A stretch of DNA of 64,000 nucleotides, taken from contig CAZNMS010000003.1 in NCBI GenBank assembly GCA_964573505.1, positions 2,052 through 66,051 of the forward strand, written 5' to 3'. The position numbers and the translations under genes are program-made. The notes under the pieces are model-generated. The model made no database searches. It was not told the DNA's origin and saw nothing but the letters and a program-made list of their open reading frames with translations. Every line of letters begins with the position of its first letter. Positions within the stretch are counted from its first letter, which is position 1. Source of the stretch: an uncultured Planctomycetaceae bacterium (GTDB taxonomy: Bacteria; Planctomycetota; Planctomycetia; Planctomycetales; Planctomycetaceae). This document shows, piece by piece, positions 12,790 to 18,026 of this stretch.

Positions 12790-13098
12790 CTCTCCACTGA
12801 CCCCGCGTCAGTGGAAGCAACGACTGGCAAGCTAACAACGCCGTCCACAAATCTCGTTCTTCACGCTCTCCACTGACCCCGTGTCAGTGGGAGCAACGAC
12901 TGATTCGCTAACGAACTTGAAGTCAGAGTTTCTGCGCAGAAGGGCGTCGTTCGCTGACGAAGGGGCTACTCGAACGATCCTTAGCCGCCCAGTCGCTGCT
13001 CCCACCGACACGGGGTCGGTGGAGAGCGATCGGCACGGCACAGTTTGGCGTTGTTAGCTAACCAGTCGTGCTTCCACCGACGCAGGGTCGGTGGAGAG
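12790..13098. repeat. Cluster of four ~50-bp REP-like hairpin repeats in nested inverted order (a> b> <c <d)
   Basis: a 12790-12842 and b 12866-12916 (ctctCCACTGACcccgygGTCAGTGGragcaacgactg...gctaac). c 12981-13026 and d 13047-13098 are reverse-complement copies with CCACCGAC/GTCGGTGG stems, a compensatory T>C / A>G change. Confidence 0.85.
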
Positions 13099-13190
13099 AT
13101 AGCCCCTGCAGTCCGTTAGGGGCGGGAAGATTTCGTAGACCCGACCCCGGTACTTTCAGCTACATCCAATACCGTCTTCGATTCACCGAC

Positions 13191-14819
13191 ATGCTCAACC
13201 GACTTCAACAACTCTTACTCAGCCGCGCGGCGTTGCCGGCGATCGTGCTGCTGTTTCTCGGTGCGATTGCGCTGCAGTGGAATGGGCCGCAGTCGATCGC
13301 TGTTGCCGATGAGATTGGCTACGTCACAAGCGGAGTGAATCTCGTCGCGACCGGTCAGTTCACGAATCCATGGGGCAAACCCGAGTTGTGGTTTCCGCCG
13401 GTCTATCCGCTGCTGATCGGTGTTTTCAGCCTCGGCGGGCAACTCGATCCCTTCGTGATCGCGCGCGTCATCAGCGCTGTCGCAGCAGTCGCGTCGTTAT
13501 TGGTGCTGCATCAAGTCGTGCTGCAAGTGCCGCTCGGTAGCCGAAGTCGTGAGACTTCGGACGCAGGCACTGTGCCCTCGAAATCTGACGATTTCGGCTA
13601 CGGCCAATTGCCGTCGAGATTGATCGCGACACTTGCGGTCTTGCTGCTCGCTGCGAATCCGACGTTTCAAAGCTTTGCTCATCGAGCACTCGCCGAGTCC
13701 GTCGCTCTTTGCCTCTCGCTGATCTCGTTGCGATGTTGGCTTGCTGCCGGACAGACGACGCGCGGAGCCGTCATGACGGGCGTGCTTGTCGGTCTTGCGA
13801 CGTTGACGCGGCCCGAGTGCATTCTCGTCGCGCCGTTGTGGTACGGCATCGACTGGTTGAGGCAGAGAGATCGGGCCGCCTTCAAACGCGGACTCGTTTG
13901 CGGAACCGTGCTCGTTGCGATGCTGCTGCCGTATGCGGCCTACTTGCATGAGCACACCGGGCAGTGGTCGATCTCGAATAAGGGCGCGGTGAATCTCGCT
14001 GCGGGTCGAGCGGCCTTTCATCGAACGCCGCGCGAATACATCGACGAAGCAACGCTCGAATTGGGCTACTACCCCGTCGACACATCGCTGCCGACCGAAG
14101 TGCAGCGCATCGCATTCAATGCCGGAAAGCTCGTCGGAGCCTTCAACGAGATCTATTGGCGCTCGTTGTTTGCTGTCGGCATTGCCGTGCTGATTGGCGG
14201 CGGCGTCGTGCTGTTATGGCGACAGAAAGAGCAACGACTCGTGCTCGGTCTTGCGGCGGGACTGACTTATCTCGGAGCCGTCTGCCTCTATGACGTTGCC
14301 GGACCGAAGAACCTGCATCTCGCCTTGCCGGCGTTCTCGTTGCTGATGGCAGTGACAGTCGCGCGGTCGCTGCAAGTCGGACAATGGAAGTGGCTCGTGC
14401 CCGTCTGCGGTCTGCTGGCGGTTGTCGTCGCGGAAGGATCAACGCGCTACGCACGATGGAATCGGTCGATCCCGCTGGATGGACTCGCAAGCCTGCGCGA
14501 AGCCGGGACTCAGCTTCGAGCAACAACGAACCGCCGCGGAGTGATGTACGAGTTCGGGGCATCGACTGCTTACTACTCGGGCCAGTGGCGGAGATATCTG
14601 ACACCGAACTCGCTCGACACCATCTTGAGCCATATCGCGGCTCAAGAACGCGTCGACGCGCCGGTCTATCTGACTGTCTCCGAAGCAACCGGCAGCAACC
14701 TACATCCCTCGACGCGAGCCCTCTTAGACGAGACTGATTCGCGTCTTGAGCGCGTGCTTGAGATCGACGCGCCGAGCCGCGTTGTGATCTATCGCGTGAA
14801 GACGGCGGATCGCTCGTGA
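13191..14819 (+). CDS. GT-C fold membrane glycosyltransferase (family 39/83, ArnT/PMT-like)
   Basis: Multi-pass membrane protein with an acidic first-loop motif (VADEIGYVTSG) and a soluble C-terminal domain. I place the start at ATG 13191 (MLNRLQQLLLSRAALPAIVLLFLG). The track's GTG at 13068 only translates REP copy d. Confidence 0.75.
   Translation: MLNRLQQLLLSRAALPAIVLLFLGAIALQWNGPQSIAVADEIGYVTSGVNLVATGQFTNPWGKPELWFPPVYPLLIGVFSLGGQLDPFVIARVISAVAAVASLLVLHQVVLQVPLGSRSRETSDAGTVPSKSDDFGYGQLPSRLIATLAVLLLAANPTFQSFAHRALAESVALCLSLISLRCWLAAGQTTRGAVMTGVLVGLATLTRPECILVAPLWYGIDWLRQRDRAAFKRGLVCGTVLVAMLLPYAAYLHEHTGQWSISNKGAVNLAAGRAAFHRTPREYIDEATLELGYYPVDTSLPTEVQRIAFNAGKLVGAFNEIYWRSLFAVGIAVLIGGGVVLLWRQKEQRLVLGLAAGLTYLGAVCLYDVAGPKNLHLALPAFSLLMAVTVARSLQVGQWKWLVPVCGLLAVVVAEGSTRYARWNRSIPLDGLASLREAGTQLRATTNRRGVMYEFGASTAYYSGQWRRYLTPNSLDTILSHIAAQERVDAPVYLTVSEATGSNLHPSTRALLDETDSRLERVLEIDAPSRVVIYRVKTADRS
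13537..13601. repeat. 65-bp double-hairpin element (GTAGC...GCTAC family), copy A, inserted in-frame inside the glycosyltransferase CDS
   Basis: gtagCCGAAGTCgtgaGACTTCGGacgcaggcactgtgccctCGAAATCtgacGATTTCGgctac. It is the reverse orientation of copy B (24999-25062) and is translated as ...GSRSRETSDAGTVPSKSDDFGYG... between two predicted TM helices. Confidence 0.8.
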
Positions 14820-14841: not shown

Positions 14842-15016
14842 GAGCCCTCATCGCTCCGCGTGAGGATCAGCCGGGCGAACACTGCGGGAGCATTTTCAAA
14901 GCAGCGCGATGATCGTGACGTTGACTGGCTGTGTTCTACTTTGCGCTCACGATTGGGCTCTCGGCAGTCGCCACCATTCACGATTGGCTAATCCTCACGC
15001 TGAGCGAAGAGGGTTC
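14842..15016. repeat. 29-bp imperfect inverted repeat pair between convergent genes (left border of the AT-richer cassette)
   Basis: 14842-14870 (gagccctcatcgctccgcgtgaggatcag) versus the reverse complement of 14988-15016 (gaaccctcttcgctcagcgtgaggattag). The right arm abuts the MBL gene stop (15018). Confidence 0.7.
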
Positions 15017-15017
15017 G

Positions 15018-16136
15018 TCACTCAACGAACAGCGATGATTTGACCTGCGCAGCGCAACCAATGCGCTCGACTGTTGGGGCATTGCCGTAACTGTCGAAAG
15101 TCAGTTTGCATTGGCCGACCTGAGCGACGACAGCAGTGGCGTTCATCCCTTGTCGCAAGGCGAGACGGCTCTTGATTGGGGCGGATGAACGCCGCTGAGC
15201 ACTGATTGCATTTGAAACGCCCGCAGTCTCAATTGACGACACGAATTCACCAATGTGTTTCAGCGCGCTCTCATGTGGCAGCTTATGCCTTACATAAGGA
15301 GTCAGTACGGCAATGGGTTTCTTATTGGCAGCGAAGGTCTGCCATAGGGAGTCGCAGTAGCCTGTCACGGAGCCATGATGGCTGACTTTCACTGCCGCAG
15401 AAGCAAGTTGTGGCCGTTCCCATTCTCTCAGAATCTCATTCCAACTCGTCGCCTCAACATCGCCACCCAAAACAATTCGTGTCTTCCCAAATACGACGAG
15501 GAGCGCCATCGAAATCTTGTTGTGGTGTTGATGCGCAGAGTCGACACGAAGACGGCCCGAACCATCAAAGCAGCTTCTCAAGGCTTCTTCATAACGGTCG
15601 CTGGACGTTCCCGTCGGCGCCAGAGCCCAAATCTCGCACCCGGCATTCGAAGTTTGTGGCGCTGGATACAACTGCGTTCCGATCGTTGCGTTCTTCGGGC
15701 ATATTCGCAGTGAACCGCTCGACTGCTGCTGTTTGAGCAGTCTGAAAATTAGATCGAGTTCAGACGCATCGGCCTTCATTTGATTATTGCCAGCAGTGAC
15801 GGCCTCTTGTTGGTGCGAGGTAATGATCCAGCTCAATCGCTGTGACGACATCACGGCAGGACGCCAAAACTGCTTGACCCGAAGGCCCGATAGCAACTGG
15901 CTCATACCGCGAAAATGGTCGCGGTGTGGATGAGTCAGACAAAGGAACTCAAGTTCTTCGACGCCTTGCGATCTGAGGAAATGCAACGCCCAATTGGAAT
16001 CAGAATCACGGAGAGAGTGAGCAAAGCAATCAACGACACCCCATCCGCCATCAGGCAACTTCAAGACAATGCTCTCGCCTTCGCTACCGCCAAAGACGTG
16101 CATTTCGAGTTGCCGGTCCTCAGTCGTCACCGTCAA
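15018..16136 (-). CDS. MBL-fold metallo-hydrolase, ComEC/Rec2-nuclease-domain-like
   Basis: 372-aa ORF (TTG at 16136; ATG at 16103 gives MHVFGGSEGESIVLKLPDGG...). It has the HxHxDH motif (LTHPHRDHFRGM) and a late VKVSHHGS motif typical of the ComEC-type MBL subgroup. It is the third gene of a tightly packed trio. Confidence 0.75.
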   Translation of the reverse strand: MTVTTEDRQLEMHVFGGSEGESIVLKLPDGGWGVVDCFAHSLRDSDSNWALHFLRSQGVEELEFLCLTHPHRDHFRGMSQLLSGLRVKQFWRPAVMSSQRLSWIITSHQQEAVTAGNNQMKADASELDLIFRLLKQQQSSGSLRICPKNATIGTQLYPAPQTSNAGCEIWALAPTGTSSDRYEEALRSCFDGSGRLRVDSAHQHHNKISMALLVVFGKTRIVLGGDVEATSWNEILREWERPQLASAAVKVSHHGSVTGYCDSLWQTFAANKKPIAVLTPYVRHKLPHESALKHIGEFVSSIETAGVSNAISAQRRSSAPIKSRLALRQGMNATAVVAQVGQCKLTFDSYGNAPTVERIGCAAQVKSSLFVE

Positions 16137-16704
16137 GTTCTCCGCCAGTGACGAGGGCCTCTAACTCCTGATTGAGCTGGCTCAATTCGGTGTCTGACAT
16201 TGGCGTGTCAGGTATCGCTTCAAGGCGAATCTCAACCTTGCCATCGACTTCTACCGTCTCGCACCAAAACCGTCGGCGTTCCTTGATGCCAAGCCTGAAG
16301 AGTTCTGCAGCAGGATATTCACCATGCAGGACTTCGTCCGACTGGGACTTCAAAGTGACGTAGGCGATGTCACCCACGATCTCGTCCACGAAACCTTCAA
16401 GGCACTCCAAGACTCGCTCATTTGCGGCATTCTCTGCGTGACAAAGTTGTGCCTCTAAGGCTTGTGCTAGGCGAGCACTGCGCGAACCTGCGTACTCCCA
16501 CTCTTCAAAACTGGCTTGCTGGATGCGTCCCAGATTGGGCTGAGTCACCTCTTTGGAAAGAAGCGACAGGCAACTCTTATACAAGCCTTTTGGGTCATTG
16601 CGGCCAAACCGGCCTACGAGAACGGGTGCCTCTTGAACTTCCACCCAAAACGACTTTGGGCTGGATGTTCGCGATCGAGCTTCAAATGCACTTGTTGGAT
16701 TCAT
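16120..16704 (-). CDS. hypothetical protein (ORFan, acidic C-terminal tail)
   Basis: ATG at 16704 (MNPTSAFEARS...); the track's TTG is at 16746. It overlaps the upstream gene by 23 nt and ends 16 nt before, or 17 nt inside, the MBL gene. It ends ...LEALVTGGELDGDD. I recognise no motif. Confidence 0.55.
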   Translation of the reverse strand: MNPTSAFEARSRTSSPKSFWVEVQEAPVLVGRFGRNDPKGLYKSCLSLLSKEVTQPNLGRIQQASFEEWEYAGSRSARLAQALEAQLCHAENAANERVLECLEGFVDEIVGDIAYVTLKSQSDEVLHGEYPAAELFRLGIKERRRFWCETVEVDGKVEIRLEAIPDTPMSDTELSQLNQELEALVTGGELDGDD

Positions 16705-17392
16705 CGCGTGCTCCTGAAACGACGGTGTTGATCTTTGCGTCGTCAATCATGCGGCGACTAGCAATCTCGGCCTTGTCTAAAGCCCGCTGGCACTGTCGCG
16801 CAAGATTTAGGATGTCAGTTTCATCTAGGGCAATACTGAGGCTGTGGTTGCCATCGCGGCTGTCGTAATTCAATCGCATGACGAATGCGACAACCGCACC
16901 ATCAACCTTCAGATCTTCACCGTCGTCATTAAAGACCGGTCGAATGTCGGTGACGATTCGAATTCCTTGCAGCAAGTTGGCATGGTCGTAAGCCAGATCG
17001 AGTGCCTTAGAAACGGTGCGAATCGATGGCGACTGAAGCAGCTTATGAAGCTGCGGTTCGACTTCCTCGTTCCAACAACGCTTCTCAGCCTCGGCCCACT
17101 CAGGTTCTGCCCGACCAACCCCGTCCCGAAGACCCTCAAGAACCTCTTCGACCGACATTTCCCGCTGACGGATAAGCTGGACCAACGCAAAAATCGGTCG
17201 CATCAAAGCATTAACCTGAGCGTCATCCTGCAGAACTTCGAAGACGGCCAAGTGCAGTGTTTGGGGAGCAAGCGGCAACGGTAAAAGCGAAGCCAGCTTT
17301 TCAATGACTCGCCGGAGATTCTCAGCACCAATCTCGTAGATCACCCTGAGATCGCGAAGCTGCGATGAGCTGATCTGAATCTGAGATGGCAT
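16682..17392 (-). CDS. hypothetical protein (ORFan), first gene of the trio
   Basis: 236-aa ORF with an ATG start at 17392. The N-terminal half looks helical and the C-terminal half looks beta-rich. I recognise no motif. Confidence 0.55.
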   Translation of the reverse strand: MPSQIQISSSQLRDLRVIYEIGAENLRRVIEKLASLLPLPLAPQTLHLAVFEVLQDDAQVNALMRPIFALVQLIRQREMSVEEVLEGLRDGVGRAEPEWAEAEKRCWNEEVEPQLHKLLQSPSIRTVSKALDLAYDHANLLQGIRIVTDIRPVFNDDGEDLKVDGAVVAFVMRLNYDSRDGNHSLSIALDETDILNLARQCQRALDKAEIASRRMIDDAKINTVVSGARDESNKCI

Positions 17393-18020
17393 TTGACGTC
17401 TTTAGATGAATGAAGCACCGCGACCGAAGTTTGTGGGCGGGCAATCTACGACCAAGAGGAATGATTTCAAGATGCTCAGGCGGCCCGAATTCCAAGATGG
17501 CTGCCATTACTAGACCCGCAACATGGGCGACTCGATATGCAACAGACTTCGATCGACTGTGTGCAAGAACTCATAGCAAGTGGCATCAAGTTACCAATCG
17601 CAGCGTTCGAAAATGCATGCAGCGACTCCAAGCCGTTGAACCAATGACGCTTCCACCGAGTTTTTTGATGCCACGAAAGGAACGCGGTTATTGCTTGGCA
17701 GGATGAGCCCGGACGTAATTTCAAAATGATGACTTCGGGAAGTAATTCGATCCGCAAGCTGCAGTCGCTGAGCCGTTTGTTGGTTCAAGAAGCTGTTTCA
17801 GGTTTGATTGAGAATTGAATTCCCTATCACGGCGTCTGGCCGACCTCTTCTTGGAGAGGACTCTCAGAGGGCCATGCGGTGTAAGCGATTCGTCGAGTGG
17901 ACTCGAAAAGGCGATGCGACGAGCACGGATTGAAGACGCGATGCTCGCCGGTCTGACGGGGCCTGCGGCTTGTCGTCGGAGGACGCTATCGTCCGCCGCC
18001 TTTGATCCCCGCACGCATAC

Positions 18021-18026
18021 AGGAGG
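18021..18026 (+). promoter_or_regulatory. Shine-Dalgarno-like AGGAGG 7 nt upstream of the kinase ATG
   Basis: acAGGAGGaagcgtcATG (ATG at 18034). Confidence 0.55.

Follow-up and report, generated by a model that had tools for sequence, protein, structure and literature searches.

A 64,000-nt stretch of DNA from an uncultured Planctomycetaceae bacterium (contig CAZNMS010000003.1), here called the window, meaning the whole stretch that was analysed, carries on its minus strand a cassette of three tightly packed genes. The first, second and third genes are designated A, B and C. Gene A is identified from its sequence and predicted structure as a prokaryotic COMMD-like protein, gene B is a putative variable adaptor or neutraliser and gene C is a stand-alone ComEC-type hydrolase with the metallo-beta-lactamase (MBL) fold, predicted to be a DNase effector. 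The trio recurs in other genomes, in more than 20 independent loci, as a conserved, mobile and self-contained unit. It belongs to a larger family in which the COMMD-like gene stays the same while genes 2 and 3 change together, as cognate pairs.

The description of the locus as a conserved COMMD-like/adaptor/MBL cassette is held with high confidence. The favoured reading of its role, to which moderate confidence is given and which is built on analogy, is that of a new modular conflict system, either anti-phage/abortive-infection or addiction, with a logic like that of toxin-antitoxin-chaperone (TAC) systems. The cassette family is rated as belonging to no described system, and its biological role is inferred.

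Gene order and recurrence of the cassette

Gene A (16682..17392, minus strand) encodes 236 amino acids and is the invariant first gene. Gene B (16120..16704, minus strand) encodes 194 amino acids from an ATG at 16704, or 208 from a TTG at 16746, and gene C (15018..16136, minus strand) encodes 372 amino acids from a TTG at 16136. With the ATG at 16704, which is favoured because the gene B homologues begin MSPT.., genes A and B overlap by 23 nt. With the TTG at 16136 genes B and C overlap by 17 nt. Both overlaps had been noted in a preliminary description, made from the letters of the window alone, and the open reading frames (ORFs) are as stated there. The homologues of gene C begin MATTDxxxLEMHVFG, which aligns with MTVTTEDRQLEMHVFG in the window when this is read from TTG 16136. 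Because the homologues conserve the residues encoded from this codon, it is probably the true start, with a real overlap with gene B, and the public call of gene C (361 amino acids, from ATG 16103) is probably 11 codons short.

Searches of all fetched loci with hidden Markov models (HMMs) for gene A, the gene B C-terminal domain and gene C showed that, besides the window, nine GTDB genomes and 17 metagenome contigs carry the trio. The named genomes with the trio are all Planctomycetota and comprise Planctomycetaceae, Schlesneria, Singulisphaera and Pirellulaceae. The order A-B-C, designated type I, is found in the window, loci L001-L017 and L046, and 17 metagenome loci. Each of these has the gene B C-terminal domain between A and C, and B and C always co-occur where the contig is long enough. 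The first ATG of gene B overlaps the end of gene A in 22 of 22 complete type-I loci (median 14 nt), and in the same 22 gene C is able to start before the end of gene B. These overlaps indicate translational coupling, and the three genes are one translationally coupled operon. The co-occurrence of the trio is far beyond chance; the preliminary description had proposed it as a check, and the order is the same in all complete loci.

The only ORFs that recur between loci within 5 kb are the cassette genes themselves, the flanks being unrelated, and the GC content of the cassette is below that of its flanks in 13 of 15 loci. The earlier proposal of a self-contained accessory cassette is thereby borne out. 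Its author had named three findings that would speak against it, namely syntenic conservation with native composition, housekeeping homologues of the partner genes and a lack of co-occurrence elsewhere; none of them was made in these loci. In L046 the gene C homologue is 46% identical, the trio is complete and insertion sequence (IS) elements flank it.

Several copies are decayed. Locus L045 (5241-6026) has a deletion fusion of A and B with gene B frameshifted, and L085 (protein P0166) a fusion of the helical HN domain of A with the barrel of B; gene C is intact in both. The two fusions are probably decay products, and a functional fusion may also be considered. In L017 (7413-10168), from a metagenome-assembled genome of Planctomycetota, the MBL gene is split by about 1.6 kb between model positions 115 and 117. 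The N-terminal MBL part reads in frame into an ORF of 657 amino acids, in which no further Pfam domain was found; for the interruption, an insertion element, an insert of intein type and an artefact of the assembly are all conceivable. Gene A is frameshifted in L028 and L032.

The three encoded proteins

The partners of the MBL gene had been described as two ORFans. This did not hold for either, since gene A is a COMMD-like protein with a relative of solved structure and thousands of related clusters, and gene B has a conserved domain and a conserved motif. The word index gave 42 homologues of gene A. A profile of these homologues (A1), compared with the PDB sequences by hmmsearch, matches 9q6a, the COMMD-like protein MBK5214510, with E=1.1e-15 over residues 4-218 of 235. 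The AF2 model of gene A (pLDDT 90.2) has six helices within residues 9-138, followed by strands at 143-155, 162-178 and 181-189 and a long helix at 191-217. This predicted arrangement is that of the family, an all-helical HN domain followed by a COMM domain of a three-stranded sheet and a long helix. Foldseek places 9q6a and 9q6c first among PDB entries (TM-score 0.70-0.78, and 0.71-0.78 for 9q6a alone), followed by the human COMMD ring chains of the CCC/Commander structures 8f2r and 8p0w (probability 1.0) and the COMM domain of COMMD9. The residues W99, W107 and TDxRPxF at 148-154 are invariant. Gene A and 9q6a have in common both the HN + COMM architecture and, at the first COMM strand, a TDxRxxF motif.

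The family is much larger than previously counted. A HMMER scan of 1.84 billion representatives with gene A gave 4,701 clusters at E<=1e-3, of which 3,373 reach E<=1e-10, whereas the study of Liu et al. (Nat Commun 2026; PMC13392464) lists 361 proteins. Among the best 150 clusters, almost all are stand-alone proteins of 220-240 amino acids. That study solved the structures 9q6a, 9q6c and 9q6d of MBK5214510 and reports that prokaryotic COMMD-like proteins assemble into octameric and decameric rings; a ring of gene A would be expected to be homo-oligomeric, with one gene encoding all its subunits. The bacterial and archaeal function is there called 'unclear' or 'obscure'. The sole contextual lead given is the proximity of Myxococcota COMMD-like genes to VgrG/PAAR/DUF2169 genes resembling the type VI secretion system (T6SS); kinases are noted near the Myxococcota genes as well, and the words nuclease, lactamase and defence are absent from the main text (PMC13392464). 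Two further papers also leave the prokaryotic function open, and searches of the available literature for papers combining the COMM domain with anti-phage activity, or linking COMMD-like proteins to such cassettes or operons, found nothing. Gene A differs from the proteins of PMC13392464 in heading a three-gene cassette with swapped effectors. With the eukaryotic Commander CCC sub-complex, the ring of COMMD1-10, it has the ring-forming COMMD fold in common, whereas homologues of CCDC22/93 and Retriever are lacking in the cassette, where the partners are toxin-like enzymes and not trafficking proteins.

Gene C is closest in sequence to the C-terminal MBL nuclease domain of ComEC/Rec2, as the preliminary description had seen. 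Against NCBIfam it matches the C-terminal region of ComEC_Rec2 (1e-12) and, more weakly, the 6A-MBL enzyme and Avs1a; against PADLOC it matches PDC-M48B (2e-12), LmuA (7e-11, residues 10-295), RTasMBL and Avs1a, with all scores against the named models of both collections below the curated cut-offs. The matches to the Pfam MBL family (Lactamase_B) are sub-threshold only. The closest solved sequences are the ComEC MBL domains 9ic4 and 30bt. The di-metal MBL motifs D, HxHxDH, H, D and H are all found, as D25, H58xH60xD62H63, H194/N195, D215 and H242H243, and are conserved at at least 94% in 116 full-length homologues. The HPHRDH and SHHGS motifs reported earlier are present, and the HxHxDH and KVxHHGS motifs are common to gene C and ComEC.

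The multi-pass membrane domain and the OB domain (DUF4131) of ComEC/Rec2 are missing, also in agreement with the preliminary description. The maximum 19-residue hydropathy is 1.31, there is no transmembrane (TM) segment and the protein is basic (isoelectric point 8.4). The match to TIGR00361 covers positions 559-649 of 663 only, with 47 bits against a cut-off of 190. In contrast to ComEC, the 372-residue protein is encoded in a cassette and not in a competence locus. Gene C is thus not ComEC itself; judged by its sequence it is a soluble ComEC-type MBL hydrolase and is probably active.

By sequence relationship, gene C belongs to a clade reused as an effector in several defence systems and is related to the MBL effectors in the Lamassu, Avs1, DRT and PDC-M48 models. 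The matches to Avs1a, 6A-MBL, LmuA-MBL, RTasMBL and PDC-M48B are partial to near full-length (E 2e-12 to 3e-4), whereas the cassette has no STAND NTPase, E1/E2/JAB, SMC-like LmuB or reverse transcriptase gene. The earlier statement that no named system fits was confirmed with PADLOC and NCBIfam. AVAST type 1 (Avs1) was rejected, as the Avs1a model gives 29.5 bits against a cut-off of 420 and no STAND NTPase lies in or beside the cassette. The 6A-MBL anti-phage system combines ubiquitin-like conjugation genes (E1/E2/JAB) with an MBL enzyme; its MBL model gives 30.6 bits against a cut-off of 220, genes A and B are not E1, E2 or JAB, and it too was rejected. The LmuA-MBL variant of Lamassu was rejected despite the LmuA match, there being no SMC-like or ATPase gene in the cassette. 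PDC-M48, on which no paper was found, was rejected because the PDC-M48B match is confined to residues 16-101 and genes A and B match no component. For DRT the defining partners are absent and the scores are below cut-offs.

A distant gene C homologue, P0113 (38% identical; JGI 3300047160), overlaps the end of a gene for a HEAT/NCH4 protein of 1,021 amino acids and is followed by a SNF2/DEAD helicase of 981 and a protein of 1,090 amino acids, with a terminase gene adjoining. This locus looks like a different candidate system with the same MBL effector. Given its partnership there with a HEAT/NCH4 protein and a SNF2 helicase, the MBL protein itself is a portable effector.

Gene B diverges fast, with just five word-index homologues, and has two parts. 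The C-terminal domain (16123..16428, minus strand) gives an HMM match at 4.7e-47. The last 95 residues were modelled as a five-stranded barrel followed by a helix (pLDDT 86-91 for residues 100-150). The best Foldseek matches of the barrel are weak (E 0.008-0.1) and nearly all of the S1/OB kind (eIF2alpha, the LysRS N-domain, MOP/molbindins and SSB-like proteins), so that the fold is tentatively described as OB-like; the gene B profile gave only chance-level matches to PDB sequences. The domain has 25 invariant columns and a conserved acidic tail ELDGD[DY], in the window GGELDGDD as first described, and the whole protein is acidic (isoelectric point 4.6). Residues 1-93 are predicted to be disordered (pLDDT <50). 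In this region lies a short conserved N-terminal module (16501..16599, minus strand) with the pattern DPK-x-[LI]-[FYW], about 15 residues, N-x-[GSP]-R-[IV]-x-Q; the sequence in the window is DPKGLYKSCLSLLSKEVTQPNLGRIQQA.

Exchange of the second and third genes

Scans with the gene A profile identified 38 genome loci and 80 metagenome loci, and across 119 COMMD-like loci in total gene A is always at the head of a cassette of three genes. Beyond Planctomycetota, the genome loci are from Verrucomicrobiota, Desulfobacteraceae, Alphaproteobacteria, Bacteroidota, Ignavibacteria and Cyanobacteria. Downstream sequence of at least 2.2 kb is available for 70 non-redundant loci, and in each of them two co-directional ORFs directly follow gene A. 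Nine recurrent pairs of gene-2 and gene-3 families cover 83 of the 93 loci with two complete downstream genes. An unknown protein of 230 amino acids with a GLTC[AS]FV motif characterizes type II (31 loci), and the MBL pair, type I as in the window, accounts for 19 loci. A calcineurin-like metallophosphoesterase, weakly similar to SbcD/Mre11 and to anti-phage phosphoesterases, is present in 10 loci and DUF7689 in six. Small proteins of 116-170 amino acids, in two families with one gene-2 family in common, are found in seven loci. The remaining pairs comprise a 170-aa family (five loci), four-TM proteins with a two-TM gene 2 (three loci) and a 183-aa family (two loci).

The neighbour-joining tree of gene A, which is without support values, places a DUF7689 cassette and another type inside the MBL clade and the phosphoesterase type inside the type-II clade. 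The pairs have therefore been exchanged between closely related gene A copies. Cultured carriers include Singulisphaera sp. Ch08 (MBL type), Neorhodopirellula, Rubripirellula and Novipirellula (type II) and Pedobacter hiemivivus (small-effector type).

The third gene of type II (L018, L021-L030, L033-L035 and metagenome loci), of about 230 amino acids, has conserved His residues and the motif GLTC[AS]FVLAVF, a sequence pattern that suggests a Cys/His hydrolase; its sole match is a weak one to phrog_11836. A contig binned as Pacearchaeota (a DPANN archaeon, with binning as assigned; L020 / L075) has a COMMD-like cassette with its own pair of 130 and 183 amino acids, in which gene 2 has a clear NWGR motif and gene 3 a weak match to phrog_4575.

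One cassette type has a counterpart among candidate systems. In the Bacteroidota/Ignavibacteria type, the C-terminal part of gene 2 (L044 6321-7079) matches PDC-M32A (1.6e-6) and gene 3 (L043 7319-7696) matches PDC-M32B (1.5e-3), both from the two-gene PADLOC candidate PDC-M32, to which this pair is homologous. The likeness concerns a sister cassette type, however, and not genes B and C of the window. PDC-M32 also differs in having no COMMD-like gene model, and PDC-M32A is longer (375 amino acids) with a different N-terminus.

The second genes of the different cassette types have unrelated C-terminal domains, and several of them share the N-terminal module of gene B. Of 40 second genes, 15 have the NxGR core within residues 20-90, where 0.12 per protein would be expected. 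Second genes score 6-25 bits with an HMM of the motif and none of 607 neighbours other than gene 2 scores above 4 bits, a comparison that is partly circular for 12 training sequences; L017, L023, L005 and L010 are independent matches. A single BLAST match joins a type-I to a type-II adaptor, and it spans precisely the region of the module. With the module HMM after iteration, none of 13,041 six-frame control ORFs reaches the scores of 15 of the 108 second genes. These adaptors have a single partner in common, gene A, so that most simply the module would bind the COMMD-like ring, and it is regarded as a candidate docking site.

Proposed function and genomic setting

The favoured reading, a conflict system, starts from what was observed, namely the identities of the folds, an active site that is intact, the conservation of the operon and the swapping of modules. 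It is suggested by the combination of a constant oligomeric protein, cognate pairs swapped as units and toxin-like third genes of diverse chemistry. It is further suggested by the short conserved stretch that the middle protein carries within a disordered extension, together with the tight translational coupling, and by the patchy distribution, atypical composition and frequent decay of the cassette.

The closest parallel in logic is with TAC systems. As described in four sources (PMC5105189, PMC6377645, 10.1101/2024.02.24.581848, PMC11618068), these have a constant SecB-like oligomer, swapped toxin-antitoxin pairs and a disordered addiction element, and some of them abort phage infection. TACs such as the HigBA-SecB-like systems and CmdTAC would be similar to the cassette in having one constant oligomeric partner with different cognate two-gene pairs, and a middle protein with a short conserved element in a disordered extension. 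The disordered N-terminal region of gene B, with its module common to several cassette types, might correspond to this feature of TAC antitoxins. The differences are that no SecB family match was found in the cassette, gene A having the COMMD fold instead of a SecB-like one, that the conserved element is N-terminal whereas the ChAD of TACs is C-terminal, that the gene order is unlike and that no cassette pair belongs to a known toxin-antitoxin family.

In the proposed mechanism gene C would be the toxic effector, a DNase, and gene B its cognate adaptor or neutraliser, binding it through the C-terminal barrel and the acidic tail. The N-terminal module of gene B would tether the B-C pair to the gene A ring, whose part would be that of a platform, a stabiliser or a sensor. 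Disturbance of the contact between A and B, triggered possibly by an invader protein competing for the ring or by the loss of gene B, would free or activate gene C and lead to DNA degradation. Toxicity, neutralisation, docking of B on A and triggering are steps drawn by analogy. In Commander structures, extended segments of CCDC22 and CCDC93 bind the COMMD ring, and the gene B N-terminus may lie on the gene A ring in a similar way.

The setting of the cassette in the window is that of an AT-richer patch, as first described, with a GC content of 0.50-0.55 over positions 15000-17750 approximately and 0.59-0.63 on either side (0.535 for the trio and 0.597 for the flanks). Its neighbours are, on one side, a cluster of chemotaxis genes and the genes for PMI and a membrane protein and, on the other, a Ser/Thr kinase-TPR gene and ruvB. 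The kinase was rejected as a partner and ascribed to chance, since such a gene adjoins the cassette in the window and L046 only and Pkinase is not among the recurrent neighbour families. No tRNA was found in the window and no integrase among the window neighbours, so that a tRNA or integrase as insertion site was rejected. Phage origin was likewise rejected, with no gene A relative found on IMG/VR viral contigs and no significant match among BFVD viral structures.

Upstream of gene A there are 642 bp (17393-18033) with no convincing ORF, in accordance with the earlier estimate of about 640 bp. A possible cassette promoter, TTGAAA-16-TAGATT (17443..17470, minus strand), lies about 50 nt upstream of gene A; the consensus scan found one promoter-like site with 1.2 expected by chance, which is weak alone. 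A regulatory RNA or conserved element was rejected for this region, as it has no Rfam match and shares no conserved DNA with the upstream regions of 12 other cassettes. Next to the gene C stop codon, in a convergent intergenic region, is an inverted repeat (14842-14872 / 14986-15016) with 31-nt arms that are 87% complementary, a spacer of 113 nt and an RNA fold z-score of -4.4 relative to shuffled sequences. The repeat, given as a 29-bp pair in the preliminary description, is real, but its proposed role as a cassette boundary did not stand: it has no second copy in the window and no counterpart downstream of the cassette in eight other loci. For the same reasons it was rejected as a miniature inverted-repeat transposable element and does not belong to the system. 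It might act as a terminator or form a structured 3' end, or else be a small non-autonomous element.

Directly downstream of the cassette, at 13068-14819 on the plus strand, is a gene for a hydrophobic protein of 583 amino acids, which matches no Pfam family at E<=1e-4. Neither this protein nor a cassette-flanking protein of 542 amino acids has a relative in the metagenome collection. Further away, a single giant ORF of 10,894 amino acids (32.7 kb) occupies 28148-60832 on the plus strand, and its first 3,000 residues gave no Pfam match at E<=1e-4.

Evidence specifically for defence is modest and comes from the architecture and the module swapping. On the side of a conflict system stand also some neighbouring genes, which are type I restriction-modification, type IV restriction endonuclease, Mads, PbeA and AbiEii genes in a raw count of 140 neighbours at 38 loci, and IS elements and a PIN toxin-antitoxin pair at L046 and L045. 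The kinship of gene C with MBL effectors of defence systems and the homology of one alternative pair to PDC-M32 point the same way. Several observations weigh against the conflict-system reading. The flanks in the window are housekeeping genes (chemotaxis, PMI, Ser/Thr kinase, RuvB) and not a defence island, and most of the 140 neighbours scanned at the other loci are housekeeping as well. Genes A and B match no model of PADLOC v2 (E<=1), NCBIfam release 20, Pfam or PHROG, and the search of viral contigs for gene A relatives mentioned above was negative. The fold of gene B is weakly assigned, with an overall pLDDT of 60 and a best Foldseek E of 0.008, the N-terminal module is strictly detected in just the 15 second genes out of 108, and its binding to gene A is pure inference.

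A selfish tripartite addiction module of toxin, antitoxin and stabiliser, which would maintain only itself or a mobile element and have no defence role, would have the same architecture. It is considered unlikely, though less so than the other alternatives. The cognate gene-2/gene-3 pairs behave like toxin-antitoxin pairs, a PIN/AF2212 toxin-antitoxin pair adjoins the cassette in L045 and IS elements lie beside L046; genes for integrases, transposases or plasmid functions are, however, not consistently linked to the cassettes and are absent near the one in the window. Many toxin-antitoxin and TAC modules supposed to be purely selfish were later found to defend against phages.

The patchy distribution, unrelated flanks and lack of synteny make it improbable that the three genes encode a cellular complex for nucleic-acid processing outside any conflict. 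In such a complex the ring would hold together an OB-fold subunit that binds nucleic acids and an MBL nuclease, and the whole would serve in DNA uptake, in repair or in the maturation of RNA, in the manner of ComEC or the RNase J/Z-type MBL proteins. This would agree with the closeness of gene C to the ComEC nuclease domain, the resemblance of the gene B barrel to S1/OB nucleic-acid binders, the absence of defence-model matches for genes A and B, and the housekeeping nature of the flanks in the window, with RuvB nearby, and of most neighbours elsewhere. The atypical GC content, the decay of several copies and the presence of at most one copy per locus, with none in most genomes, argue against it. 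The partners of the gene A family elsewhere, which are membrane proteins, a phosphoesterase, DUF7689 and unknown small proteins, are also hard to fit to one housekeeping activity.

An inter-bacterial toxin/immunity cassette tied to a secretion or injection apparatus, an idea already proposed for the Myxococcota COMMD-like genes, with gene C as a delivered nuclease and gene B as its immunity protein, is very improbable, for although the T6SS-like genes near Myxococcota COMMD-like genes (PMC13392464) and the similarity of the swapped third genes and their cognate second genes to polymorphic toxin/immunity pairs would suit it, secretion genes, VgrG, PAAR and DUF2169 included, do not recur in the surroundings of any of the 119 loci, gene C has no signal peptide, TM segment or recognisable delivery domain, and a toxin-after-immunity order with a constant cytoplasmic ring protein is unusual for polymorphic toxins.

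A wider form of the conflict-system reading is put forward tentatively, with less confidence than the conflict system itself. Prokaryotic COMMD-like rings might be the conserved hub of a widespread, previously unrecognised modular immune or toxin family of thousands of clusters, in which short motifs in interchangeable adaptors plug in a DNase, a phosphoesterase, membrane disruptors and other effectors, and the COMMD ring of the eukaryotic Commander might have descended from a conflict-system scaffold. If this is true, that ring would be a further piece of eukaryotic machinery rooted in bacterial immunity, alongside cGAS/STING, gasdermins, TIR and NLR-like proteins.

If the cassette is a conflict system, it would bring a new core protein family to prokaryotic immunity and add another link between bacterial conflict and eukaryotic cell biology. 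If it is not, it still gives the first candidate physical partners for a family with solved structures. The cassette offers several handles on the question of COMMD-like function: the gene order is invariant, the partners come in cognate pairs, one motif is a candidate for docking and the enzyme has an active site that can be mutated.

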